A stretch of 32,000 nt of DNA. Source: Phycisphaera mikurensis NBRC 102666. Lineage in GTDB: Bacteria; Planctomycetota; Phycisphaerae; Phycisphaerales; Phycisphaeraceae. The notes under the pieces were generated by a model that had not been told where the DNA came from, did not search any database, and saw only the letters and a program-made list of their open reading frames with translations. Positions 4,569-28,710 of the stretch are shown here, in pieces. The DNA lies in NCBI RefSeq assembly GCF_000284115.1, contig NC_017080.1:780001-812000 (forward strand), read 5' to 3'. Positions within the stretch are counted from its first letter, which is position 1. Each line of letters begins with the position of its first letter. Made by a program: the position numbers and the translations under genes.

Positions 4569-6029
4569 TTGCGCGGCGGCCTGATAGGTTCGGGTTGCGT
4601 CGCGATCCTTTGGGGGTTTTTCTTGCTCATCGAACAAGCCCGCCTGGCGGGCGGCGTCTACGGGCTCTCGGGTCGGTTCAGGCCGGGATCCATCCGCGAC
4701 GTCGCGTGGCGGGCGGAGCAGCTCGCGGCCGCTTTGGTGGAGGCCGGCGTGCTCGGGCCGGGGACGGAGGTGGTCATTGCCGGGGTCGGTCCCGCCGGCG
4801 TCGCCGCGACGGGGGCGTGCCTGGCGGCCGGGGCGACCGTGACGGTGGTCAGCGGAGCGAGCGGCCGCCAGTCGATCCTCCAGCGATCGACGCGGCACGT
4901 CTGCCCCACCACCTTCGACCACCCGATGGACCACTGGCAGATCGGCTCGCACCCGCTCCCGGGGCAGGACGCGGCGGTGGCCTGGGCGGCCGGGCCCGCC
5001 GACCGACTTCTCGCGGGCTTCGCCGCCAACCTCAACCGGTGGCTGCGGGAGACGCCACGCTTCCGCGTCGTCGGATCGACGGATTTCGTGGGCTACGAGG
5101 CGGTCGGGGGGGGCGGGGTCGTCGTCTCGTGCTCGGGCGGGCTGACGCTGCGGGCCGACCTGCTGCTGCTCGCGACGGGCATCGGCTTCTCGCGGCGGGG
5201 CGTTCCGGGCAGCTTGTTCCGGAGCCGCGACTACTGGGAGAGCCACGACACCGTGTTCAAGCCGCCGCGGGCCGCGGGCCTGCGGGTGCTGGTTGCCGGC
5301 GGCGGCGACGGGGCGTTGAACGACCTTGTGCGGCTGCTCACCGGGCGGGCGAGCGTCGACACGCTCCTGGAGGAGGTGGACCGGTGCCTGCCGCTCACCC
5401 TGGTCCGCGAGCACGCCGAGCACGCGTGGCGGGAGTTCGCGGCCGGCGGCGACGAGGCCGCCGAGCGGCGACGCCTCCGCGACCGCCAGCGGTGGCTGGA
5501 CGGGCACCTGGACGAGCTCTGGGGCCGGGCGGCGGTGCGGGCCGTGATCGGCGACGCGGCGTTGCCGCTCACCCGGCGCTCTTGCGTGAGGCTGGTGACC
5601 CGCGAGGCCTGGTTCGACGACGCTTACCTCGTGAACCGGCTGCTCGCCGGGCTGCTCCTGCGCTTCCTCGGGGAGGACCTGCCCGGCCGCAACGGCGGCC
5701 TCGTGCCGCTGCTTTGCGGTTGGGAGGTCGCCGGTTGCGTCGGCCTGAACGGTCATGCGTGCGAAGGCGACCGCCACCTTTGCGCCAAGCATCCCCACCG
5801 CGTGCGCTTCCGCCGCTGGCCCGGGGCCGCGCGTCCGGACGCCGACCGGCCCTTCCTGAGCACCCGCGGGGTCGAGGGCGACTACGACCGCGTGCTCCTG
5901 CGGATCGGGGCGGATGCCGCGGCGGGGGCGGGGGCGGGGGCGGACGCGGGGGTCGCCGCCGCCCCGGCCGGGGCCGCGGAGCACCGCCACGTCCCGCCGT
6001 TCTATTCCCGCGGCTTCCGCGACGGCTGA
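4569..6029 (+). CDS. FAD/NAD(P)-binding oxidoreductase with a thioredoxin-reductase-like two-Rossmann layout; function unknown
   Basis: Motifs occur in TrxR-like order: VVIAGVGPAGVAATGACLAAG (~4771-4812), LLLLATGIG, then RVLVAGGGDGALNDLVRLL (~5281-5325). There is no redox CxxC between them. No ATG is available near the start. Candidate starts are TTG 4569, which would add a hydrophobic LIGSGCVAILWGFFLLI segment, or TTG 4623. Confidence 0.6.
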   Translation: MRGGLIGSGCVAILWGFFLLIEQARLAGGVYGLSGRFRPGSIRDVAWRAEQLAAALVEAGVLGPGTEVVIAGVGPAGVAATGACLAAGATVTVVSGASGRQSILQRSTRHVCPTTFDHPMDHWQIGSHPLPGQDAAVAWAAGPADRLLAGFAANLNRWLRETPRFRVVGSTDFVGYEAVGGGGVVVSCSGGLTLRADLLLLATGIGFSRRGVPGSLFRSRDYWESHDTVFKPPRAAGLRVLVAGGGDGALNDLVRLLTGRASVDTLLEEVDRCLPLTLVREHAEHAWREFAAGGDEAAERRRLRDRQRWLDGHLDELWGRAAVRAVIGDAALPLTRRSCVRLVTREAWFDDAYLVNRLLAGLLLRFLGEDLPGRNGGLVPLLCGWEVAGCVGLNGHACEGDRHLCAKHPHRVRFRRWPGAARPDADRPFLSTRGVEGDYDRVLLRIGADAAAGAGAGADAGVAAAPAGAAEHRHVPPFYSRGFRDG

Positions 6030-6108
6030 TCGGCCTCCGGTGGGGGGCGTCGGCTCGCGGCCGACCGATCCGCGGATCCTGCGCCCGCTGGGCCGATCGC
6101 GTCGCCGG

Positions 6109-7314
6109 TCAGCTCGGGTCCGTCGGGGCCCCGCCGGCGACGCGGCCGGTGGGCATGGTGCGGCCGGGGCGCAGGTCGGCGAGGAGCAGGGGGGTTTCGC
6201 CCGTGTAGCCGGCGGCGGCGGCGTCGGCGAAGCCGAGGCGGGCGGCGGCCTCCTCGCTCAGGAGCCCGGCCGCGACGAAGAGCCGGGCGAGGCCGCAGGC
6301 GCGGGCGGCGGTGAGGCCGGCGGCGGCGAGCGGCTCGGCGAGGTCGGCCTCCGCGAAGGGAGCCAGAACGCGGAGGCCGGCGAGGCGGCCGAGGCCGCGC
6401 GTGGCGACGCCCACGAGCCCGGCTTCCTCGAGCGTCAGCTCCCCGACTTTTGCGCCCGAGGCCTCGGCCACGAGGCGGGCCAGGCGCACGCCGCCGCTCT
6501 CGTCGGGCTCCTCGCGGACCGTGACGATCTTCGCCCCCGGGGCCCCGCGGTCCGCGGCGCCGCCGCCGCCGAGCAGGTCGGGGCGGTTGCGTCGCGTGGT
6601 GGCGAGGGCCTCGGCGGCCCGCCAGGCCTCGATTCTGCCATGATCCCCGGACCGCAGCACGGCCGGCGCCTCGCGGCCGTCCCAGACCGGCGGCTTGGTG
6701 AAGTGCGGGTGGTCGAGCAGGCGGTCCGCCCCGGCGGCGAAGCTGTCGTCGCGGGCCGAGTCGGCGTGGCCGAGCACGCCGGGCAGCAGGCGGACGACCG
6801 CGTCGATGAGCGTCATCGCCGCGAGCTCGCCGCCGGAGAGCACGAAGTCGCCGAGGCTGATCTCGTCGAGCCCGGCCGGCTCGTCCCGCATGCGGGCGAG
6901 CACCCGCTCGTCGATGCCCTCGTAGTGGCCGCACAGCAGCAGCAGCCGCGGCTTCCCGGCCAGCCGCTCCGCCACCGCCGCCGTGAGCGGCCGGCCCTTG
7001 GGCGTGAGGAACACCCGGTGCGGCGGCCGCGGGTCCTCGGCCGTCGCCGCCTGCACCGCCCGCCACACCGGCTCGCACCGCATCACCATCCCCGGTCCGC
7101 CGCCGTAGGGCGGCGCGTCCACCTTGTGGTGCTTCGGGTCCTCCGAGAACGCCCGCAGCGCGTGCAGGTGGTACGACGCGACCGCCGGCCGGTCCCGCGA
7201 CCGGTCGTCCGGCGCCGCCGGATCCGCCACGTCCCGCGCCGCCCGCGCGAGGATCGAGTGCCCGAGCACGCTCTCGAACATCTCCGGGAACAGCGTGACG
7301 ACGTCGATGCGCAT
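6109..7314 (-). CDS. trmD: tRNA (guanine37-N1)-methyltransferase TrmD with a ~150-aa C-terminal extension
   Basis: MRIDVVTLFPEMF..., PPYGGGPGMVM, LLLCGHYEGIDERV, ISLGDFVLSGGELAAM and RSGDHGRIEAWR. The start is ATG 7314 inside track ORF 6109..8397. The core ends near RRNRPDLL (aa ~248), but the frame stays open to 6109. Confidence 0.9.
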   Translation of the reverse strand: MRIDVVTLFPEMFESVLGHSILARAARDVADPAAPDDRSRDRPAVASYHLHALRAFSEDPKHHKVDAPPYGGGPGMVMRCEPVWRAVQAATAEDPRPPHRVFLTPKGRPLTAAVAERLAGKPRLLLLCGHYEGIDERVLARMRDEPAGLDEISLGDFVLSGGELAAMTLIDAVVRLLPGVLGHADSARDDSFAAGADRLLDHPHFTKPPVWDGREAPAVLRSGDHGRIEAWRAAEALATTRRNRPDLLGGGGAADRGAPGAKIVTVREEPDESGGVRLARLVAEASGAKVGELTLEEAGLVGVATRGLGRLAGLRVLAPFAEADLAEPLAAAGLTAARACGLARLFVAAGLLSEEAAARLGFADAAAAGYTGETPLLLADLRPGRTMPTGRVAGGAPTDPS

Positions 7315-9674: not shown

Positions 9675-10433
9675 ATGCCCGACGCCCCGCCGTACATCCT
9701 GCTCTCCGACGTCGACGACACGCTGCTGGGCGACGACGCGGCGACGCGACGCTTCGCGGACTTCGTGGAGAGCCGCCGGGACCGGCTCGCCTTCGTGATG
9801 AACTCCAGCCGCTTCGTCGCTTCGCAGCTCCGCTCGCTGGAGGAGACGGCGCTGCCCGGGCCGGACCTGCTGATCGGCGGGATGGGCACGGAGATCGCGC
9901 TGCCCCCGGGCGGCTCGCGGCTGCCCGACGCCCAGGCGCACGCCGACATCTGGCGGGCGAAGCACCTCGCCGGCTGGGACGTGGTGAAGGTCGTCGGCGT
10001 GCTCGACCGCTTCCCCGGCGTCGAGCCGCAGCCCGAGGCGAACCAGAGCGACCTCAAGCAGAGCCGCTACCTGCGCGACGCCTCCGAGGAAGACCTCGCC
10101 GCGCTGCGGGGCGAGCTGGCGGACGTGGGCCAGGACGTCCGCGTGACGTACAGCTCCGCGCGCGACCTGGACGTCACGCCGGCGGGAGCGGACAAGTCGA
10201 CGGCGGTCCGCTTCGTCATGAAGTCCTTCGGCTACGACGACGGCCACGCCGCGGTCGCCGGCGACTCGGGCAACGACCGGGCGATGCTCACCTGCGGCGC
10301 GTGGGGCATCGTCGTCGCGAACCACCGGCCGGAGCTGGCGGACCTCGCCGGGGAGCGGATCCACCGGGCTGCGGCCGGCCACGCGGACGGGGTGATCGAG
10401 GGGCTGAAGCGCTGGTTCCCGGAGCTGGCCTGA
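9675..10433 (+). CDS. HAD-superfamily sucrose-phosphate phosphatase-like protein
   Basis: LLSDVDDTLLG (DxDxT), GMGTEI, LDVTPAGADKSTAV and AGDSGNDRAML...VVANHRPEL. This matches the SPP (HAD IIB) layout. Confidence 0.75.
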   Translation: MPDAPPYILLSDVDDTLLGDDAATRRFADFVESRRDRLAFVMNSSRFVASQLRSLEETALPGPDLLIGGMGTEIALPPGGSRLPDAQAHADIWRAKHLAGWDVVKVVGVLDRFPGVEPQPEANQSDLKQSRYLRDASEEDLAALRGELADVGQDVRVTYSSARDLDVTPAGADKSTAVRFVMKSFGYDDGHAAVAGDSGNDRAMLTCGAWGIVVANHRPELADLAGERIHRAAAGHADGVIEGLKRWFPELA

Positions 10434-12770: not shown

Positions 12771-12799
12771 TCGACGCGTTCATGATAATCGGTTATCAT
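12771..12799 (+). promoter_or_regulatory. Putative promoter (TCGACG-17 nt-TATCAT) overlapped by the perfect palindrome ATGATAA-TCGG-TTATCAT (12782-12799), a Fur/Zur-box-like operator
   Basis: This is the only strongly AT-rich palindrome I saw in the window. Its TGATAA/TTATCA half-sites match the classic Fur-family half-site. It lies upstream of the first H-X9-DG/PEP-CTERM module. Confidence 0.5.
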
Positions 12800-12805
12800 G
12801 GTGCG

Positions 12806-12922
12806 GTGCCCAAGCCGCCCCCGAGCCACGAAGCCGTTCGATCCGCGAGTCCCGCGGCGCGGGCGGCAGCGGGTGCGCAGCGCCCGGGCCGCGGTGCCGC
12901 GTGCGGCAGGGCCGGCCGGTGA
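12806..12922 (+). pseudogene. 38-codon remnant of a Fur-family regulator paralogue (internal deletion)
   Basis: From GTG 12806 it reads VPKPPPSHEAVRS..., versus the intact regulator VPRSSPHAASVER... from GTG 16065. The preceding 22 nt are 19/22 identical (TCGGTTATCATGGTGCGGTGCC versus TCGCCTATCATGGAGCGGTGCC). Its TGA (12920-12922) overlaps the next ATG, mirroring the TTTGA overlap at 16439-16442. Confidence 0.45.
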
Positions 12923-13152
12923 TGGGCGCCCGCTCCCTCCTCGCTCCGCTGCTGGCGCCCGCGCAGCCGTCCGCCCCCGGCGGCCCGGCCGGGTGGCTGG
13001 CGCACGCTCCCGGCGCGTCCGGGAGCCGCGGCGGCGCGACCCGCCACGCGGCGACCCACGCCGCCGCGGTGTCGCCCGCGGAGGGTGCGTTGCGGAACCC
13101 GGGCACGCGTCTCCGCTCGCCAGGCCGCGGACCGCCCGCCGCGGACGCCTGA
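12922..13152 (+). pseudogene. Decayed paralogue (76 codons) of the small His/Cys-rich membrane protein at 16439..16825
   Basis: Shared segments are GGPAGWLAHA versus GGPAGLLHHRLAHA and the C-terminus GRGPPAADA* versus DRGPPAADV*, with near-identical DNA across the stop. The His tract is eroded, the CxxC is lost (NPG-TRLR versus DPGCTLCH), and prolines interrupt the N-terminal helix. Confidence 0.45.
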
Positions 13153-13192
13153 CCGGCGGCGCGTTGGCGCCCCGCTCTGCCCCGTCCGCGGC
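13138..13192. repeat. Hairpin GCCGCGGACG-N35-CGTCCGCGGC spanning the small-ORF stop
   Basis: Perfect 10-bp inverted repeat at 13138-13147 and 13183-13192. The same stem sequence occurs at the equivalent junction at 16811-16870. Confidence 0.6.
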
Positions 13193-13241
13193 CGCCACCG
13201 GCCGCCGGTCAACACCCGCCCTCGCTCCAAGGAGGTGTGCC

Positions 13242-14021
13242 CTGCGCATCCGCTCCCCGGCTCCCGCTCCGCGCGCCTTCACGCTCATTGAGCTGCTGGT
13301 CGTCGTCTCCATCATCGCCCTGCTCATCGGGCTCCTGCTGCCGGCGCTGGGCAGCGCCCGCCGGACCGCTTCGGCGCTGGCCGACCTCAGCAACCTCAAG
13401 CAGATGGAGATCGCCCACGCCAGCTACGCCGTCGACAACGACAGCCGGCTGATCCAAGCCAACCTCGCGCACGGCGGCGTCGTTCACTACAACCCCGACG
13501 GCTCGCCCGTCGTGCCGTGGATCGACACGCTGCGGACGTACTACGCGGCCGATCTGGTCGTGCGCTCGCCGCTGGACGACAGCCCCCACTGGGGGCCGTT
13601 CCCCGCGGGCGAGCCCATCCCGGGCGCCCCGGCCAACCAGCGGCGCGTGACCAGCTACGGGATCAACACCTTCACCGACCCGGTGCTGGTGCCCTGGGGC
13701 CCGGGCTTCGTCTCGCCCTTCCGCGGGTACACGATGGACACGATCCGCCGACCGGCGTCGGTGGTGCACTTCCTGCCGATGGCCCACGGGGGCACGTTCG
13801 CCGGCGCCGACCACCCCCACGCCGAGGAGTGGCTGGTGCATCCCGTGCCCGCGTTCGCGGCGCAGGGCCAGGCGCAGATCAACGCCGTCAAGGGCGAGCC
13901 GGGCACCCCGGCCGCCGTCGCCAACTGGGGCTTCCTGGACGGCCACGCCGCCGCCACCGGGTTCTCGGAGCTGGTGACCGACCTCCAGCTCAACCGCCTC
14001 GACCCCGACCGCGCCCCCTGA
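13242..14021 (+). CDS. Prepilin-type N-terminal methylation-domain protein, DUF1559/H-X9-DG-like (copy A; the H of the motif is replaced)
   Basis: [30 protein letters not shown]. The C-terminal motif is ...PAAVANWGFLDGHAA, where the DG is kept but P replaces H. RBS AAGGAGG (13229-13235) lies 6 nt before an in-frame CTG at 13242. There is no ATG/GTG/TTG between the RBS and the leader, so the start codon is uncertain. The upstream part of track ORF 12798..14021 is non-coding-like. Confidence 0.8.
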   Translation: MRIRSPAPAPRAFTLIELLVVVSIIALLIGLLLPALGSARRTASALADLSNLKQMEIAHASYAVDNDSRLIQANLAHGGVVHYNPDGSPVVPWIDTLRTYYAADLVVRSPLDDSPHWGPFPAGEPIPGAPANQRRVTSYGINTFTDPVLVPWGPGFVSPFRGYTMDTIRRPASVVHFLPMAHGGTFAGADHPHAEEWLVHPVPAFAAQGQAQINAVKGEPGTPAAVANWGFLDGHAAATGFSELVTDLQLNRLDPDRAP

Positions 14022-14062: not shown

Positions 14063-14830
14063 ATGCAACACACGATCGCCCCCACCCTCCTCCTCGCCGC
14101 CGCCCTGGCTCCCGCGGCCGCCCACGCCGAGCACGCCGACGCGATGCTCCTGGTTGGCCCCGACGGGCGGCTGACCACCGGCCTCTACAGCTTCGACACC
14201 GCGACGGTGCTCGCCACCGACGAGCGCGTCTTCGAGGGCGAGTTCGACGCCTTCGGCATCGTCGCCGAGCCGGGCTTCAACGCGCTGCCGGCCGGGAGCG
14301 CCGGCCTCCCCGCGGGCTTCTCGGCGCTGCCGGGCAACACGCCGGTGACCTTCACCGGCCGCGCCTTCACCCAAGCCGGCGTGACGAGCAACCTCTGGCA
14401 CTGGGACGCCACCGGCCCGGTGGACTTCCAGCCGGTGACGGCTCCGACCTCGCTGGACATCAAGCGCTCGGTCTTCACCACCAACCTCGACGGCGGCTCC
14501 GCCGACGCGGCGGGCTTCCTCATCGACACCACCGGCGCCAGCGGCTCGCTGCACCGGCACGTGAGCTTCCAGGTGAACGACGGCGACGGCGACCCGCTCG
14601 TGCAGTCCGCGGCCGCGGGCTTCTACCTCTGGTCGATGGAGCTGGCCGTCGGATCCGCCCTCACCGCCGAGCCGATCTTCTTCGTCCACGGCCTCGGCGT
14701 CGAGAACGAGGCGCTCCACGAGCAGGCGATTGCCTTCGTCGAGGCCAACGTCGTGCCCGAGCCCACGGCGGCCCTGGGCCTGGCCGCCGCCGGCGTCGTG
14801 CTGCTGTCCCGCCGCCGCGCTGCGGCCTGA
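14063..14830 (+). CDS. PEP-CTERM-anchored secreted protein (A1)
   Basis: ATG 14063 follows AAGGAA. The signal peptide is MQHTIAPTLLLAAALAPAAAHA. The C-terminus VPEPTAALGLAAAGVVLLSRRRAAA shows the PEP motif, a TM segment and an Arg cluster. Confidence 0.85.
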   Translation: MQHTIAPTLLLAAALAPAAAHAEHADAMLLVGPDGRLTTGLYSFDTATVLATDERVFEGEFDAFGIVAEPGFNALPAGSAGLPAGFSALPGNTPVTFTGRAFTQAGVTSNLWHWDATGPVDFQPVTAPTSLDIKRSVFTTNLDGGSADAAGFLIDTTGASGSLHRHVSFQVNDGDGDPLVQSAAAGFYLWSMELAVGSALTAEPIFFVHGLGVENEALHEQAIAFVEANVVPEPTAALGLAAAGVVLLSRRRAAA

Positions 14831-14916: not shown

Positions 14917-15861
14917 ATGAAACGACCCTCCGCCTTCCGCTCCCTCGCTTCGTTCCGCTCGCTCTGCTGCGTGTGCACCACCGCGGCGGCCGCCGCGGCC
15001 GCCACGGCCCCCGCCCCCGCGGACGCCTCGCCCGAGCCGGGCATCAACATCTACCACGTCGGCGTCGACGCCGGCGCGACCATCGGCTTCGGCCCGTACA
15101 AGGGCCTGGTCAACCCCAACGAGAACCGGCTCACGCTGTTCCTCTCGCACACCTTCACCGACACGCCCACCAGCAACCACTACCACCGCATCGGCTCGTA
15201 CGCCTACACCGGCGGTCCCGCCGACCCGCAGCCGGGCTTCTCGGGGAACAACCGGCTGCCCGAGCCCTACCAGCAGGACGACGGGCTGTCGCTGCTGCCC
15301 GGCTCGGGGGTCTTCGCGGGCAAGATGGTTTCGGGCCTGGGTCCCGCCGCCTTCCCCGGGGACGAGATCGAGGAGGAGTACGGCGACCTCACCGTGCGTC
15401 CCATCGACCAGCTGCTGCCCTTCGATGGACGCCTCGCCGACCCCGACGACCCGCGGGGCCAGCCCTTCCACCCCGGCCACTACCTGGTCAACGCCTCCGG
15501 GGGCGTCTACAAGACGCCGATCGCCGGCACCACCGTCGGGCTCCGGCTGACGGAGCTCTCTGAAGGCTTGGGCGTGTTCGACGCGAGCGGGAACGAGCTG
15601 TTCACCGGCGTCGGCGAGGTGCTCACCCTCGGCGACAGCGCCGACTGGTCCTTCTCGCCGGTCTTCGCGGCGGAAGGCGACGCCACGCCCGGCACCGCCT
15701 TCTCGGCGACCTTCGAGCTGACGGACCTCTCCGCCACGCCCACCTACGGCGACTCCGCCGCCTTCTCGGTGGACTTCGTGGCCGTGCCCGAGCCCACCGC
15801 GGCCCTCGCCCTCGCCCTCGCCGGCGTCGGCCTGCTCGGCCGGCGGCGCCGCCACGGCTGA
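14917..15861 (+). CDS. PEP-CTERM-anchored secreted protein (A2)
   Basis: The C-terminus is VPEPTAALALALAGVGLLGRRRRHG. There is an N-terminal hydrophobic/Ala-rich signal. His-containing motifs are SNHYHRIGSY and FHPGHY. Confidence 0.85.
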   Translation: MKRPSAFRSLASFRSLCCVCTTAAAAAAATAPAPADASPEPGINIYHVGVDAGATIGFGPYKGLVNPNENRLTLFLSHTFTDTPTSNHYHRIGSYAYTGGPADPQPGFSGNNRLPEPYQQDDGLSLLPGSGVFAGKMVSGLGPAAFPGDEIEEEYGDLTVRPIDQLLPFDGRLADPDDPRGQPFHPGHYLVNASGGVYKTPIAGTTVGLRLTELSEGLGVFDASGNELFTGVGEVLTLGDSADWSFSPVFAAEGDATPGTAFSATFELTDLSATPTYGDSAAFSVDFVAVPEPTAALALALAGVGLLGRRRRHG

Positions 15862-16030: not shown

Positions 16031-16058
16031 TTGGCGTCTCGCGAGAGTCGCCTATCAT
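16031..16058 (+). promoter_or_regulatory. Putative promoter of the Fur-family gene (TTGGCG-16 nt-TATCAT), paralogous to the block at 12771-12799
   Basis: TATCATGGAGCGGTGCC (16053-16069) matches TATCATGGTGCGGTGCC (12794-12810). Here the left half of the palindrome is degenerate (GAGAG versus GATAA). Confidence 0.4.
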
Positions 16059-16064
16059 GGAGCG

Positions 16065-16442
16065 GTGCCTCGCTCCTCCCCCCACGCCGCCTCCGTCGAG
16101 CGACTGCTGCGCGACGCGGCGGGGCCGATGTCGGCGGCGGAGGTGGCCGAGGCGCTGGCCCACACGGGGATCGGGATCGCGACCGTCTACCGGCTGCTCG
16201 GCCGCGGCGCGGAGGAGGGCCGGTACGTCGCGGTCGAGATGCCGCACGGCCCGGCCCGGTACGAGCCGGCGGACCGTCCGCATCACCACCACTTCGCGTG
16301 CACCGCGTGCGAGGCGGTGTACGACGTGCCCGGCTGCACGGGGAACCTCAAGAAGCTGGTGCCCGAGGGCTTCACGCTCGACGCCCACGAGATCCTGCTG
16401 ACCGGCCGGTGCGCGGACTGCAGCGCGGGGTCGAAGCTTTGA
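16065..16442 (+). CDS. Fur-family metalloregulator (Fur/Zur/Nur-type, 125 aa)
   Basis: Winged helix MSAAEVAEALAHTGIGIATVYRLLGRGAEEGRYVAVE, then RPHHHHFACTACEAVYDV and LLTGRCADC (HHHHFxCxxC...CxxC). The GTG 16065 start is inferred. The track start (TTG 15903) adds an Arg/Ala/Pro-rich stretch that looks non-coding. Confidence 0.8.
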   Translation: MPRSSPHAASVERLLRDAAGPMSAAEVAEALAHTGIGIATVYRLLGRGAEEGRYVAVEMPHGPARYEPADRPHHHHFACTACEAVYDVPGCTGNLKKLVPEGFTLDAHEILLTGRCADCSAGSKL

Positions 16443-16825
16443 GCGTCACGCGACCGCTCCTGTTCCTGGTCGCCGCCGCGCTCCTGCTGAGCCTCGGCGG
16501 CCCCGCCGGCCTGCTGCACCATCGGCTGGCTCACGCGGGCGGCCACGCCGCGGCTCACGGCGGGCACGGCCACGCGCACGCTCATGCGGACGCTCCCGCT
16601 TCGCCGGCTCCCGACGAGCCCGCGGACCCGCAGGAGCCAGCCGACCCGGGCTGCACGCTCTGCCACGCCCTCGCGCACCCGCTCGCGGTGCCGCCGCAGC
16701 CGGTCGTCGCGGCCCCGCTCCCGCCGCTGGGCGCGGCGGTGCGCGCTGCCCGGCCCCGGTCGGTCTACGCGACCTCTCAACGGAGCCGTCCGCCGGACCG
16801 CGGACCGCCCGCCGCGGACGTCTAA
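16439..16825 (+). CDS. Small membrane-anchored His-rich/CxxC protein (128 aa), DUF2946-like by motif
   Basis: TTG 16439 overlaps the regulator stop (TTTGA). The sequence is SVTRPLLFLVAAALLLSLGG (TM), then HHRLAHAGGHAAAHGGHGHAHAHAD, then a Pro/Asp/Glu linker and GCTLCHALAHPLAVPP. Confidence 0.65.
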   Translation: MSVTRPLLFLVAAALLLSLGGPAGLLHHRLAHAGGHAAAHGGHGHAHAHADAPASPAPDEPADPQEPADPGCTLCHALAHPLAVPPQPVVAAPLPPLGAAVRAARPRSVYATSQRSRPPDRGPPAADV

Positions 16826-16870
16826 GCGGCGGCGCCCCTGCGCGCCGCTCCGTCTCGCTCCGTCCGCGGC
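16811..16870. repeat. Hairpin GCCGCGGACG-N40-CGTCCGCGGC spanning the small-ORF stop
   Basis: Perfect 10-bp inverted repeat at 16811-16820 and 16861-16870, homologous to 13138-13192. Confidence 0.6.
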
Positions 16871-16933
16871 CCCCGGCTCCTCGCTGAGGGGCGGTCTCGC
16901 GGAACCCGGTCTCCCTGCTCTCCAACGGAAGTC

Positions 16934-17728
16934 GTGCCCGTGCGCACCCGCACCCCCGCCGCCCCCTCGGCGACGGCCTTCACGCTCATCGAGCTGCTGG
17001 TCGTCATCTCCATCATCGCCCTGCTGATCGGGCTGCTGCTGCCGGCGTTGGGCGCGGCGCGGGAGACCAGCCGGATGGCCAAGTGCCTCAGCAACAACCG
17101 GCAGATGGCGATCTCGACGGTCAACTTCGCCTACGCCGGTGCGCAGCCCGTGCGTCCGGCCGGCGCGTCCCGCGACGCGTCGCTGCTGCCCAGCGTCGGC
17201 TTCAGCCACGGCGGCAGCACCTACTCCGAGCAGGGGTCGTGGTTCTTCCTGCTGCAGGACTTCTCCGACGGAACGCTCGCCTGGCGGTGCGACTCCGACG
17301 AGAGCCCCGCGTGGGAGACGCCCCAGGGCAGCCCGTCGCGGCTGCGCCGGGTGAGCTACGCCACCAACTTCCTGTTGAGCGGCTTGAGCAGATCGATCGC
17401 GCCCTCGGGCCGGCCCTACCGCACCTACGCGGACCTGGACAAGATCCCGGCTCCGTCGGCCACCTGCTTCATCGTGGAGCTCGCCGAGGAAAGCTCGTCC
17501 GGCTTCGCGACGGCGGACCACGTCCACCCCGAGACCTGGACCGGCAACCTGCCGGCCATGCGGAACCAGATCGAGCTCGAGCAGCACGCCGGCAAGGCGA
17601 ACTACGCCTTCCTGGACGGCCACGCCTCCACCGAGCAGCGTGAGGGCGTGTACGACCTGGATCCCGCTTCGGTGATCCCCAACCTGATCTGGCGTGCGAA
17701 CGCCTTCGACCCGGAGGTCGCCCGCTAA
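16934..17728 (+). CDS. Prepilin-type N-terminal methylation-domain protein with an intact H-X9-DG motif (copy B)
   Basis: [30 protein letters not shown], and [12 protein letters not shown] at 17585-17620. The start is GTG 16934 or GTG 16940; GGAAG lies at 16927-16931. Confidence 0.85.
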
Positions 17729-17815: not shown

Positions 17816-18466
17816 ATGACGACCCTTTCCACCCTCAGCACCCGCGTCGCCCTCGGCGCCGCCGCCGCCGTCCTCGCCTTCCCCGCCGCGGCCGACGGCG
17901 AGGGCGACGGCGCCCCGCACGTCGCCGTCGCGCAGGAGCTCACCGGCGAGCTGGAGATCGAGTACGAGGTCGACGCCGGCCTCGACGAGTCCGTGACGCC
18001 GGTCCGGCTCACGCTCGACACCTCGGCTTACAGCACCCTCTACGCGGGCTTCCGCACCTTCCCCGTCAACGACACGCCCAGCCCCAACGACGACCTCGGC
18101 TTCGTGTCGGAGGTCGAGGGCGTCGACGAGGAGGGGGCGGCGCTCTCGGAGAGCATCGGCCTCCGTCTCCTGAGCAAGGACGCGGACTTCGCCATCTTCG
18201 ACGGCACGACCGAGATCCTCGCCTCGCCCAACGCGACCTTCAGCCTCGGCAACGCCTTCGACTTCCACCCGGTCTGGGTGCTCCGCACGCAGGACCAGGG
18301 CTTCTTGGGCACCTCCGACGCCTCGCTGGAGGTGTTCTCCGAGGCCACCGGTGACTCGATCGGCACCTTCGACGTCCGCCTGGCCGTCCCCGAGCCGACC
18401 ACCGCCGCGCTCTTCGGCATCGCCGGCACGCTGCTGCTCCGCCGCCGCCGCGACGCGCGGGCCTGA
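17816..18466 (+). CDS. PEP-CTERM-anchored secreted protein (B1), homologous to the C-terminal half of A2
   Basis: Signal MTTLSTLSTRVALGAAAAVLAFPAAA. The C-terminus is VPEPTTAALFGIAGTLLLRRRR. It shares the pattern GLRL..FD..LG..PV..E..GDS..F.V..VPEP with 14917..15861. Confidence 0.85.
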   Translation: MTTLSTLSTRVALGAAAAVLAFPAAADGEGDGAPHVAVAQELTGELEIEYEVDAGLDESVTPVRLTLDTSAYSTLYAGFRTFPVNDTPSPNDDLGFVSEVEGVDEEGAALSESIGLRLLSKDADFAIFDGTTEILASPNATFSLGNAFDFHPVWVLRTQDQGFLGTSDASLEVFSEATGDSIGTFDVRLAVPEPTTAALFGIAGTLLLRRRRDARA

Positions 18467-27850: not shown

Positions 27851-28591
27851 TCAGTGCAGGTCCCACAGGCCGTCCTTGTAAGCGGGGTCGCGGCGGTCGA
27901 ACACGTTGTTGCCGGTCCACACGCCGACGGGGCCGGCATAGAACGGCGGCTCCATGCGGCGCGTGTCGGCGTGGCCGTCGAGCCAGGCGACGCTCGCCCG
28001 CTCGCCGTGCCGGGCGTTGGGCCGGCACTCGAAGCTGCCGGCGTCGGGCCGCCCCTTCCAGCTCGGCGGCCAGAGGTGCGTCGCGTCGCGGGGCTGGCCG
28101 AGGTCGTTGATCCCGCCGTCGGCGAGGCCGACCGTGTCGGAGGGGGCGCGGACCTGGTGGATCCGCTTTCGGTTGAGGTTCGTGTTGAAGCCGTAGCTCG
28201 CCTCCAGCACGACCCGCCGGCTCGGATCGAGAGGATCCGGCCGGGTGGGGTTGGCGTTCTCGGGGCAGTTCCAGACGTCCGCGTCGCGGTGCTCGGCGTT
28301 GGTCGCGGTCTGCTCCAGGTAGGGGACGAGCAGCATCTTGCGGTCGGTGCCGGGGCTCCAGGAGACCCACCGGCCGCCGTGGTCGTCGGCGAACATCAGG
28401 GCGGCTTGGCCGATGCTCCGCGCGTTGGCGAGGCAGGCGACGCCGCGGCCGGCGCCCCGGGCGGCCCCGAGCGTGGGGAGGAGGATGCCCACGAGCAGGG
28501 CGATGATCGAGATCACCACCAGCAGCTCGACGAGCGTGAAGCCCCGCGGGGCGGGGGAGGCGCCGGCGCGGCGCAAAATCGAAGAAGGCAA
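27851..28591 (-). CDS. Prepilin-type N-terminal methylation-domain protein with an intact H-X9-DG motif (copy C)
   Basis: [30 protein letters not shown] and HGERASVAWLDG. TTG 28591 lies 5 nt after GGAAGGA; TTG 28576 is the alternative. Confidence 0.85.
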   Translation of the reverse strand: MPSSILRRAGASPAPRGFTLVELLVVISIIALLVGILLPTLGAARGAGRGVACLANARSIGQAALMFADDHGGRWVSWSPGTDRKMLLVPYLEQTATNAEHRDADVWNCPENANPTRPDPLDPSRRVVLEASYGFNTNLNRKRIHQVRAPSDTVGLADGGINDLGQPRDATHLWPPSWKGRPDAGSFECRPNARHGERASVAWLDGHADTRRMEPPFYAGPVGVWTGNNVFDRRDPAYKDGLWDLH

Positions 28592-28710
28592 GAGAATCCT
28601 TCCGGCCGGGCGGCCGAACGGGGGGAGCGCGAGCGGCCGGCGGCCGCGCGTCGCGCAGGGGAAGAGACGCCGACGCGGACCCGGAGGCCCGCGCGCAGCG
28701 CCGTCGCGGT

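Follow-up and report, generated by a model that had tools for sequence, protein, structure and literature searches.

This report concerns a 32,000-nt stretch of the genome of Phycisphaera mikurensis NBRC 102666 (contig NC_017080.1, positions 780,001 to 812,000 of the forward strand), hereafter called the window and numbered from its first letter, and in particular a small open reading frame (ORF) at 16439-16825 that lies between a Fur-family repressor gene and a gene for a pilin-like protein. Two paralogous ORFs occupy similar positions elsewhere in the window, and all three are considered here as candidate regulatory leaders of the DUF2946 (PF11162) family, of which just "a few" members have been reported from Planctomycetes (Roy et al., PMC9426467). 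The host genome consists of a 3.80-Mb chromosome and an 81-kb plasmid, with 73% GC.

Putative leader ORFs of the window and their family

The leader ORFs, their motifs and the adjoining repressor gene are as follows.

16065-16442, plus strand: Fur-family repressor gene, probably zur; 125 aa, with an HHHH motif and two CxxC motifs (PF01475, 42.5 bits)
16439-16825, plus strand: putative CruR/DUF2946-type leader ORF; 128 aa, uninterrupted, with a TTG start
16652-16663: CTLC of the 16439 leader, residues 72-75, as read from the translation
16799-16810: RGPP of the 16439 leader, residues 121-124, followed by 4 residues and the stop codon
28711-29112, minus strand: second intact putative leader ORF; 133 aa, P-x-H-x-R-G/D subtype
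28884-28873, minus strand: CPIC of the 28711 leader, residues 77-80
28734-28723, minus strand: RAPP of the 28711 leader, residues 127-130, followed by 3 residues and the stop codon
12922-13152, plus strand: degenerate third leader ORF; 76 aa, with the tail RSPGRGPPAADA before the stop codon and RGPP codons at 13126-13137

The 16439 product has near its N-terminus a basic residue (R5) and then a 15-residue hydrophobic stretch, LLFLVAAALLLSLGG, after which come, in this order, a His tract, a linker rich in Asp, Glu and Pro, the sequence GCTLCHALAHP, a 45-residue Pro/Ala-rich stretch and the tail RPPDRGPPAADV, immediately before the stop codon. By inspection, both intact leaders have an N-terminal export or transmembrane segment, MSVTR-PLLFLVAAALLLSLGG in the 16439 leader and MLQR-LFTCATCAWLGVLFCAVI in the 28711 leader. 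A preliminary description of the window had listed the hydrophobic segment, the acidic Pro-rich linker and GCTLCHALAHP, all of which stand, together with 11 His residues in a 25-residue tract; we count 9 in the tract and 11 in the whole protein. Its reading of the minus-strand paralogue, with CATC, CPLC and SCPICH, agrees with the translation, which ends in GRAPPAAG before the stop codon. Directly upstream of this second leader there is no gene in the same direction.

In Bordetella pertussis, Bp2923/CruR is an upstream ORF whose nascent product senses copper via a conserved CXXC, and the family has been defined by an export signal (in >95% of members), a CXXC, a RAPP located 3 residues from the end, 45 intervening residues (plus or minus 1-2) and a long intergenic region (Roy et al. 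2022, PMC9426467). The intact leaders of the window read CTLC-45-RGPP+4 (16439) and CPIC-46-RAPP+3 (28711); to judge from sequence, both carry every hallmark of CruR/DUF2946, one copy with Gly for Ala. The resemblance to DUF2946 noted in the preliminary description held up in a hidden Markov model search, in which PF11162 aligned nearly end to end with the 16439 ORF (profile positions 6-117 of 117; 22.6 bits, E 2e-4, gathering score 23.7) and scored 16.7 bits with the 28711 ORF, while planctomycete homologues reached 24-27.6 bits, several of them over the cut-off. When a profile built from 18 planctomycete homologues was run against the six-frame ORF set of the genome (38,718 ORFs of at least 40 aa), the 16439 ORF ranked first (E 9.4e-8) and the 28711 ORF second (E 0.025). 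Two Cys residues and R..PP are the sole invariant positions of the 18-sequence alignment, with Ala and Gly alternating in R(A/G)PP. This layout is uncommon within the genome: R[AG]PP followed by 0-6 residues closes 149 of the 38,718 ORFs, and a CxxC lies 42-49 residues upstream in just 16439 and 28711. The preliminary description, which spoke of a small membrane protein, had missed that DUF2946 proteins have become known as regulatory nascent peptides and not as stable membrane proteins. Overall, the 16439 and 28711 ORFs are probably CruR/CutF-type (DUF2946) regulatory leader peptides.

The third ORF, 12922-13152, was correctly said to be without both the His tract and the CxxC, as its translation confirms; it ends in GRGPPAADA and keeps, of the family hallmarks, the RGPP tail alone. 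This tail and the hairpin DNA that follows it are nearly identical in the 12922 and 16439 copies, whereas the ORF bodies differ. The conserved DNA noticed earlier across the stop codon proved to be identical at 23 of 23 bases between the copies at 13123 and 16796, and it encodes R-G-P-P-A-A-D, a RAPP-type arrest motif that had then gone unrecognised. Three parts of module A (12771-14021) can be aligned with module B, namely the promoter/operator, the arrest tail with its hairpin, and the start of the pilin-like gene; module A is devoid of the fur body and of the Cys/His part of the leader. The 12922-13152 ORF is thus best read as a decaying leader keeping just the arrest tail. That this tail is nearly perfect points either to some remaining function, through constitutive stalling or read-through, or to gene conversion.

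Two further DUF2946 matches were recorded in the genome. A fourth chromosomal match, at C1:1229915, was rejected as spurious, being out of frame within a FabH-like gene. The other, on the plasmid (C2:32222-32503, minus strand, locus L001), scores 26.2 bits, over the Pfam cut-off; it contains CHGHG and TCDCSG, has neither the CxxC-45-RAPP layout nor an R[AG]PP tail, and has genes for small lipoproteins with many Met, His and Asp residues behind it, in what looks like a metal-resistance context. This plasmid ORF may be a CzcI-like, non-stalling relative.

Pilin-like partner genes and conservation of the pairing

Each of the three leaders precedes one pilin-like gene.

13242-14021, plus strand: pilin-like gene 1 (DHPHAEEW subfamily), about 89 nt after the 12922 leader
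16934-17728, plus strand: pilin-like gene 2, with a prepilin N-terminus and H-X9-DG, 108 nt after the 16439 leader
27851-28591, minus strand: pilin-like gene 3, with H-X9-DG and a C-terminal LWDLH tail, 119 nt after the 28711 leader

According to the preliminary description, each paralogue lies upstream of an H-X9-DG gene. Prepilin-type genes (FTLIELLVV) do follow all three leaders, and the three proteins score 18.1, 24.2 and 29.2 bits with the prepilin motif TIGR02532 (cut-off 16.3); the literal H-X9-DG motif is found in genes 2 and 3 (HGERASVAWLDG in gene 3), whereas gene 1 reads PAAVANWGFLDG, without the His. With the H-X9-DG/DUF1559 proteins (PF07596, TIGR04294) the three share the prepilin FTLIELLVV...LLPAL and the C-terminal DGH, and public annotation of their homologues is DUF1559. 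They differ in falling under the Pfam and TIGRFAM cut-offs (PF07596, 14.9 bits for gene 2 and 19.2 bits for gene 3, cut-off 23.3; TIGR04294, 18.3 bits, cut-off 19) and in forming two short subfamilies of about 230-260 aa, one marked by xHGG, DHxHxExW and an N.FDP tail and the other by the LWDLH tail; at E<=0.01, PF07596 recognised 5 of 20 members of the pilin-like subfamily. They are best called H-X9-DG-like pilin-like proteins. An AlphaFold2 model of pilin-like protein 2 (16973-17728) has a predicted local distance difference test (pLDDT) score of 90.6 and a predicted template modelling (pTM) score of 0.83, and a Foldseek search of the PDB with this model returned no chain at E<4, so that by this route the globular domain of the subfamily has no solved relative. 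As regards gene 1, a 1-nt difference has put the GTG that corresponds to the gene 2 start out of frame, the in-frame options being a CTG at 13242 behind a strong AAGGAGG (13227-13244) or a distant TTG at 13164; the gene may be poorly translated or decaying.

The proposed enrichment of such small proteins upstream of H-X9-DG genes gave a positive test, albeit restricted to a specific subfamily and seen mainly in relatives. Of the 62 ORFs of the genome that encode a prepilin N-terminal motif, only three, all in the window, have an ORF ending in R[AG]PP within 400 nt upstream, and prepilin-type genes with DHxH..W (two) or the LWDLH tail (one) are, in the whole genome, only these same three of the window.

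Because GC content at third codon positions (GC3) fails to tell the 16439 frame from its antisense (0.88 vs 0.90), the case for translation rests on comparative evidence. The relatives analysed are a sample, in which genomes related to each other do not count as independent. PF11162 is present in 24 of 401 sampled Planctomycetota genomes, and 18 planctomycete loci inspected in detail show a hydrophobic N-terminus, a His-rich stretch, (H)D..C..C and an R[A/G/P]PP end. The spacing between CxxC and R..PP is 43-48 residues in the 18 phylum loci and 44-47 in both the class loci and the metagenome loci. A leader profile search was positive in 34 of 301 Phycisphaerae genomes, and in 20 of the 29 class loci that were fetched a prepilin-type gene starts 68-340 nt past the leader stop. 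In 18 of these 20 paired genes, DH.H..W (DHPHVENW, DHTHSRSW, DHVHPENW and variants) is accompanied by xHGG, FLDGHA and an N.FDP tail, and these 18 share the subfamily of genes 1 and 2 of the window; DH.H..W is missing from the remaining two, of which the one in G654 matches gene 3 (LWDLH). A reverse test, seeded on homologues of pilin-like protein 2 and hence not conditioned on the leader, found a leader 60-112 nt upstream in 7 of 10 contexts, with a spacing of 44-47. Close orthologues are 44-52% identical in the leader vs 74-84% in the pilin-like protein, and the leaders keep, despite indels, the frame, LGGPAGLLH, the His cluster, C..CH.LA and R.RPP.R[AG]PP. Such a pattern of divergence is the one expected of a peptide that works through its length and a handful of motifs and not through a fold.

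The association with the Fur-family gene is likewise conserved. As the preliminary description had proposed, the leader is coupled to this gene, its TTG start at 16439 overlapping the TGA stop at 16440-16442 as TTGA. A co-directional Fur-family gene stands immediately upstream of the leader in four genomes (G254, G206, G577 and G356) and six metagenome loci (L062, L065, L066, L067, L070 and L071), and the stop/start overlap, in which the Fur-family gene reaches 1-4 nt into the start codon of the leader, is seen in about ten lineages. The junction reads ATGA in G254, G577, G356, L062 and L066, TTGA in L065 and the window, GTGA in L067 and L071, and TGATG in L070, while G206 has a 3-nt gap. Since stop/start junctions recur in relatives, translational coupling is conserved.

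Outside Phycisphaerae, the usual next gene encodes a protein of about 470 aa (L006, L009, L012-L015, L017, L021, L024, L025 and L032) that has a signal peptide and a coiled-coil-like N-terminus, conserves HPH.W.[FW] and ends in an aromatic residue. No Pfam match was obtained for this partner; it may form an outer-membrane channel, as yet uncharacterised, that is controlled in the same way. One locus, L031 (G223:C20), contains two CruR-like leaders (5960-6472 and 9913-10368) 3.5 kb apart, the first before a full-length DUF1559 gene and the second before the gene of a DUF58 protein, with an OEP efflux gene upstream.

Operator, spacer and metal context

The remaining features of the locus are listed below.

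12782-12799, no strand assigned: perfect palindrome ATGATAATCGGTTATCAT, a Fur/Zur-box-like putative operator, overlapping the -10 element TATCAT of a promoter-like site at 12771-12799
14063-14830, plus strand: PEP-CTERM protein A, ending in VPEPTAALGLAAAGVVLLSRRR as read from the sequence
14917-15861, plus strand: ZepA/all3515-family Zur-repressed PEP-CTERM protein (NF040463, 272.9 bits, cut-off 75)
16031-16058, plus strand: promoter-like site TTGGCG-16-TATCAT of the fur-leader operon, from a promoter scan, with the right operator half only
16811-16820 and 16861-16870, plus strand: arms GCCGCGGACG and CGTCCGCGGC of a GC-rich hairpin spanning the stop codon of the 16439 leader, the 5' arm immediately after the Pro codons
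16826-16933, plus strand: spacer between the 16439 leader and pilin-like gene 2; 108 nt, richer in C than in G
17816-18466, plus strand: PEP-CTERM protein B (TIGR02595, 22.6 bits, cut-off 16)
28592-28710, minus strand: spacer between the 28711 leader and pilin-like gene 3; 119 nt

The best PDB relatives of the Fur-family protein are 3mwm/7vo0 (45 bits), which we take to be Streptomyces coelicolor Zur; 2o03 (FurB/Zur) is in the top six, and Campylobacter jejuni Fur scores 42 bits. The product of 16065-16442 is favoured as Zur, and is probably so, because of the operator and the ZepA context. No second copy of the palindrome at 12782-12799 exists in the genome, and the best other site has 3 mismatches. 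Palindromes of 18 bp of the form ATGATAA-N4-TTATCAT lie over a TATCAT -10 element upstream of fur-leader operons in relatives (ATGATAAACCATTATCAT in G356, ATGAGAACGTATTATCAT in G577 and ATGATATTTCATTATCAT in G441), and in the metagenome locus L070 the same operator stands directly before the orthologous module-A pilin-like gene. The -10 element of the fur-leader promoter ends about 7 nt before the fur start (GTG 16065 in the window, region 16053-16067; also in G577), and the fur mRNA may be leaderless. Between the -35 and -10 elements of this promoter there is also a 10-bp perfect GC-rich palindrome, TCTCGCGAGA (16037-16046); in module A the corresponding position is taken by the left half of the AT-rich operator.

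The 5' arm of the hairpin at the leader stop codon stands right behind the Pro codons, and a stalled ribosome would therefore cover it; the same GC-rich hairpin is also found at 13138-13192. Folds of the tail and spacer as single sequences were no better than those of shuffled sequences (z -0.7 to -1.5, with a non-significant -1.5 for the hairpin region at 16826-16933), a scan of the window spacers revealed no intrinsic terminator, and an Rfam search of the window gave no match. Visual inspection showed, in some lower-GC relatives, hairpins that run into T-rich stretches. With seven close relatives, RNAalifold paired the R-G/A-P-P codons with the Shine-Dalgarno (SD)/start region of the pilin-like gene (85% of cells paired, vs 73% in shuffles and 37-53% in slid registers). 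An SD-sequestering helix, promising in these seven, was nevertheless dropped as a general feature since it did not generalise in a permutation test over 28 loci.

Several observations bear on the metal. The ZepA homologue covers profile positions 1-227 of 227 and has its PEP-CTERM domain at residues 290-312; PEP-CTERM protein A gave no NCBIfam match. In Anabaena, ZepA is an exoprotein of zinc uptake (Sarasa-Buisan et al. 2024, PMC10957091), and in several phyla zepA adjoins FUR-family genes regarded as zur and carries Zur sites on its promoter (PMC10957091). The window resembles such ZepA-Zur loci in having a zepA homologue by a FUR-family gene, a palindromic operator over a promoter and PEP-CTERM genes nearby, and differs from them in that ZepA is absent from most Phycisphaerae with the leader/pilin-like module; the main text of PMC10957091 contains no mention of leader peptides or pilin-like genes. 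In relatives, zinc-enzyme genes occur as neighbours (Amidase_3 for G254; for G172, an MpaA-like M14 peptidase), and a GHGHHDHDHGHEEEHDDDHD insert is present in the orthologue of pilin-like protein 2 from G172. Zinc is modestly favoured as the sensed metal because of ZepA, the Zur-box-like operator, the Zur-type relatives of the repressor and the zinc-enzyme neighbours. Copper, the metal of the uptake genes that the preliminary description placed next to DUF2946-type genes, is probably not the metal here.

Two observations on relatives belong here. Co-occurrence of ZepA was tried as a general argument for zinc and failed, since ZepA is found in 7 of 301 genomes and in G612 is on a contig apart from the leaders. 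A MerC-family membrane protein is encoded after the pilin-like and PEP-CTERM genes in L062 (4633-5274) and L063 (4518-5189), and is a candidate inner-membrane metal importer for the system.

Proposed mechanism and alternatives

The mechanism that we infer would start with synthesis of a leader bearing an N-terminal export or anchor segment, whose His-rich stretch and CxxC would bind metal while the chain is still on the ribosome. R(A/G)PP, fixed 45-46 residues past the CxxC, would act as a ribosome-arrest sequence, and the state of the stall would decide transcription or translation across the spacer of about 110 nt into the pilin-like gene and the next PEP-CTERM gene. Under the favoured, CruR-like logic, the ribosome would stall when metal is lacking, premature termination in the spacer would be blocked and the downstream genes would be ON; bound metal would release the stall, allow termination and turn them OFF. 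In copy 1, where the leader is coupled (TTGA) to a presumably autoregulated Fur-family repressor, one promoter would thus carry two control layers, with the repressor made whenever the promoter fires and the costly secreted proteins made only under true starvation. SecM, ApdA and ApdP are RAPP/RAGP arrest peptides that sense protein-export status and regulate a downstream gene; the leaders described here, compared with them by motif only, share the C-terminal R-A/G-P-P/G core, by which peptidyl transfer is stalled in those peptides, and differ in that export status, not metal, is sensed there.

With CruR (PMC9426467), the leaders have in common the 45-46 intervening residues, a long spacer (108-119 nt here, 162 nt for CruR) before genes for envelope proteins that acquire, or here would acquire, metal, and the same expected logic, in which metal would turn the uptake genes OFF; Rho, too, is present here (533.8 bits). 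They differ in their target, which is here a pilin-like gene with a PEP-CTERM gene and for CruR a TonB-dependent transporter with PepSY, and, for copy 1, in being a second cistron that overlaps a Fur-family gene, with RGPP, a long His tract and a metal that is probably not copper. With CutF of Rhodobacter capsulatus (Ozturk et al. 2023, bioRxiv 10.1101/2022.11.11.516240; 10.1101/2025.02.05.636593), they share the superfamily; both have a signal peptide, Cys and His as a (here putative) metal site and, at the C-terminus, a Pro-rich motif for stalling, by which CutF acts, and the leaders would act, in cis on the next gene. CutF, however, has a CxxxC, a short spacer and an SD-hiding stem-loop, and copper-induced stalling turns ON a detoxifying oxidase, whereas the leaders of the window have a CxxC at CruR-like spacing in a metal-starvation context. 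Ozturk et al. also reported that some CutF-like clusters are His-rich and not copper-specific, and listed a "pilin-like signal" class among the downstream proteins.

That the 16439 ORF might be an untranslated chance frame in 73% GC DNA is hardly credible: GC3 does give it no edge over the antisense, and long ORFs are present in all frames of the window, but homologous ORFs with the same motifs, spacing and position, and with frame-keeping indels, exist in genomes of 49-75% GC from many families, and homologous leaders are called by gene callers in public assemblies, one of them with a Pfam DUF2946 match. We also regard as very unlikely a stable, membrane-anchored periplasmic metal-binding protein (a chaperone or a CzcI-like sensor) that would act with the pilin-like protein and have no nascent-chain role. 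The single N-terminal helix with His/Cys ligands, a weak NCBIfam CzcI match (20.3 bits vs a cut-off of 100) and the plasmid copy without an arrest motif would fit such a protein; the invariance of only the two Cys, R..PP and the spacing, with a linker otherwise free, fits a ribosome-tunnel ruler and not a folded domain, and the degenerate third copy retains precisely the tail. In addition, CruR and CutF are undetectable as mature proteins (PMC9426467; bioRxiv 10.1101/2022.11.11.516240, 10.1101/2025.02.05.636593), which argues against a stable product.

If the leaders do act while nascent, the direction of control and the metal have to be considered. The opposite, CutF-like logic, in which periplasmic metal would induce stalling, melt a stem-loop hiding the ribosome-binding site and turn ON genes for sequestration or detoxification in excess metal, appears unlikely. 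CutF, itself a DUF2946 member, works in this way, RNAalifold gave a helix between the arrest codons and the SD/start region in the seven relatives, and a heavy-metal P-type ATPase, MerC or OEP gene adjoins the module in some relatives. Yet that helix was derived from and tested on the same seven related sequences, the class-wide permutation test showed no specific complementarity, in the window itself the adjacent spacer is the better pairing partner of the arrest codons, and the Fur-family repressor, the Zur-type operator and ZepA mark a starvation-induced uptake locus. Copper (as for CruR and CutF) or iron, instead of zinc, is a possible though doubtful signal for the leader. It is suggested by the CxxC, a classical Cu(I) ligand set, by the copper response of both studied family members, by FeoAB divergent from the fur-leader operon in L065 and by the nearly equal scores of the repressor against Campylobacter Fur and Zur; on the other side, ZepA and the zinc-enzyme neighbours indicate zinc, as do the His-rich tracts of the leader and the GHGHHDHDHGHEEEHDDDHD insert of the G172 pilin-like orthologue. 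Copper sensing is not known for any Fur-family regulator, which further counts against this metal. Moreover, members of the family are not all copper-specific (Ozturk et al.).

The preferred reading, a CruR-type leader switch with zinc as its signal, has several observations weighing against it. The PF11162 score of the 16439 ORF is 1.1 bits under the gathering threshold; copy 1 carries RGPP, while the motif tested experimentally is RAPP, and is a second cistron, unlike cruR genes, which by the published rule are first in their operon (PMC9426467). RAPP/RGPP strings are common in all frames at 73% GC, as the 149 ORF ends show. The pairing is not universal, 3 of the 10 contexts of pilin-like protein 2 homologues being without a leader (L063, L064 and L068), and in the 28-locus permutation test 11 of 28 own pairings beat the permuted ones, with no class-wide conserved spacer structure. 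As to zinc, ZepA, apart from being confined to 7 of 301 class genomes, is otherwise unlinked to the leader/pilin-like module, and the metal clues of relatives are mixed: L065 has FeoAB in divergent orientation, L067 has a P1B ATPase upstream, and in both L062 and L063 MerC follows downstream.

Taken as a whole, we advance only tentatively the full proposal, namely a zinc-responsive CruR-type switch hard-wired to its own Zur by a start/stop overlap and governing a metal-binding pilin-like family (DHxHxExW, xHGG, DGH) with PEP-CTERM partners. No report of the conserved fur-leader overlap, of the pilin-like target subfamily or of the zinc context was found in the searchable literature, and titles and abstract openings of the papers found to mention DUF1559 contain nothing on metals or zinc. 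There are hints that the pilin-like proteins work in metal (probably zinc) acquisition. Should the proposal be true, some H-X9-DG pseudopilins of Planctomycetota would belong to a pilus- or secretion-based apparatus of metal scavenging that replaces TonB-dependent uptake, and nascent-peptide metal sensing would be extended to a new phylum, probably to a different metal, and to a new wiring with a Fur-family repressor. The fixed ruler of 45 residues across distant phyla would place a strong constraint on the structural relay from metal binding to the peptidyl-transferase centre. The proposal would also provide a first concrete functional handle on an H-X9-DG/DUF1559-like subfamily, which is among the largest and least understood gene expansions of Planctomycetota; as the pilin-like genes would be under metal-starvation control and carry conserved His/Asp motifs, their products can be tested for metal binding and uptake.

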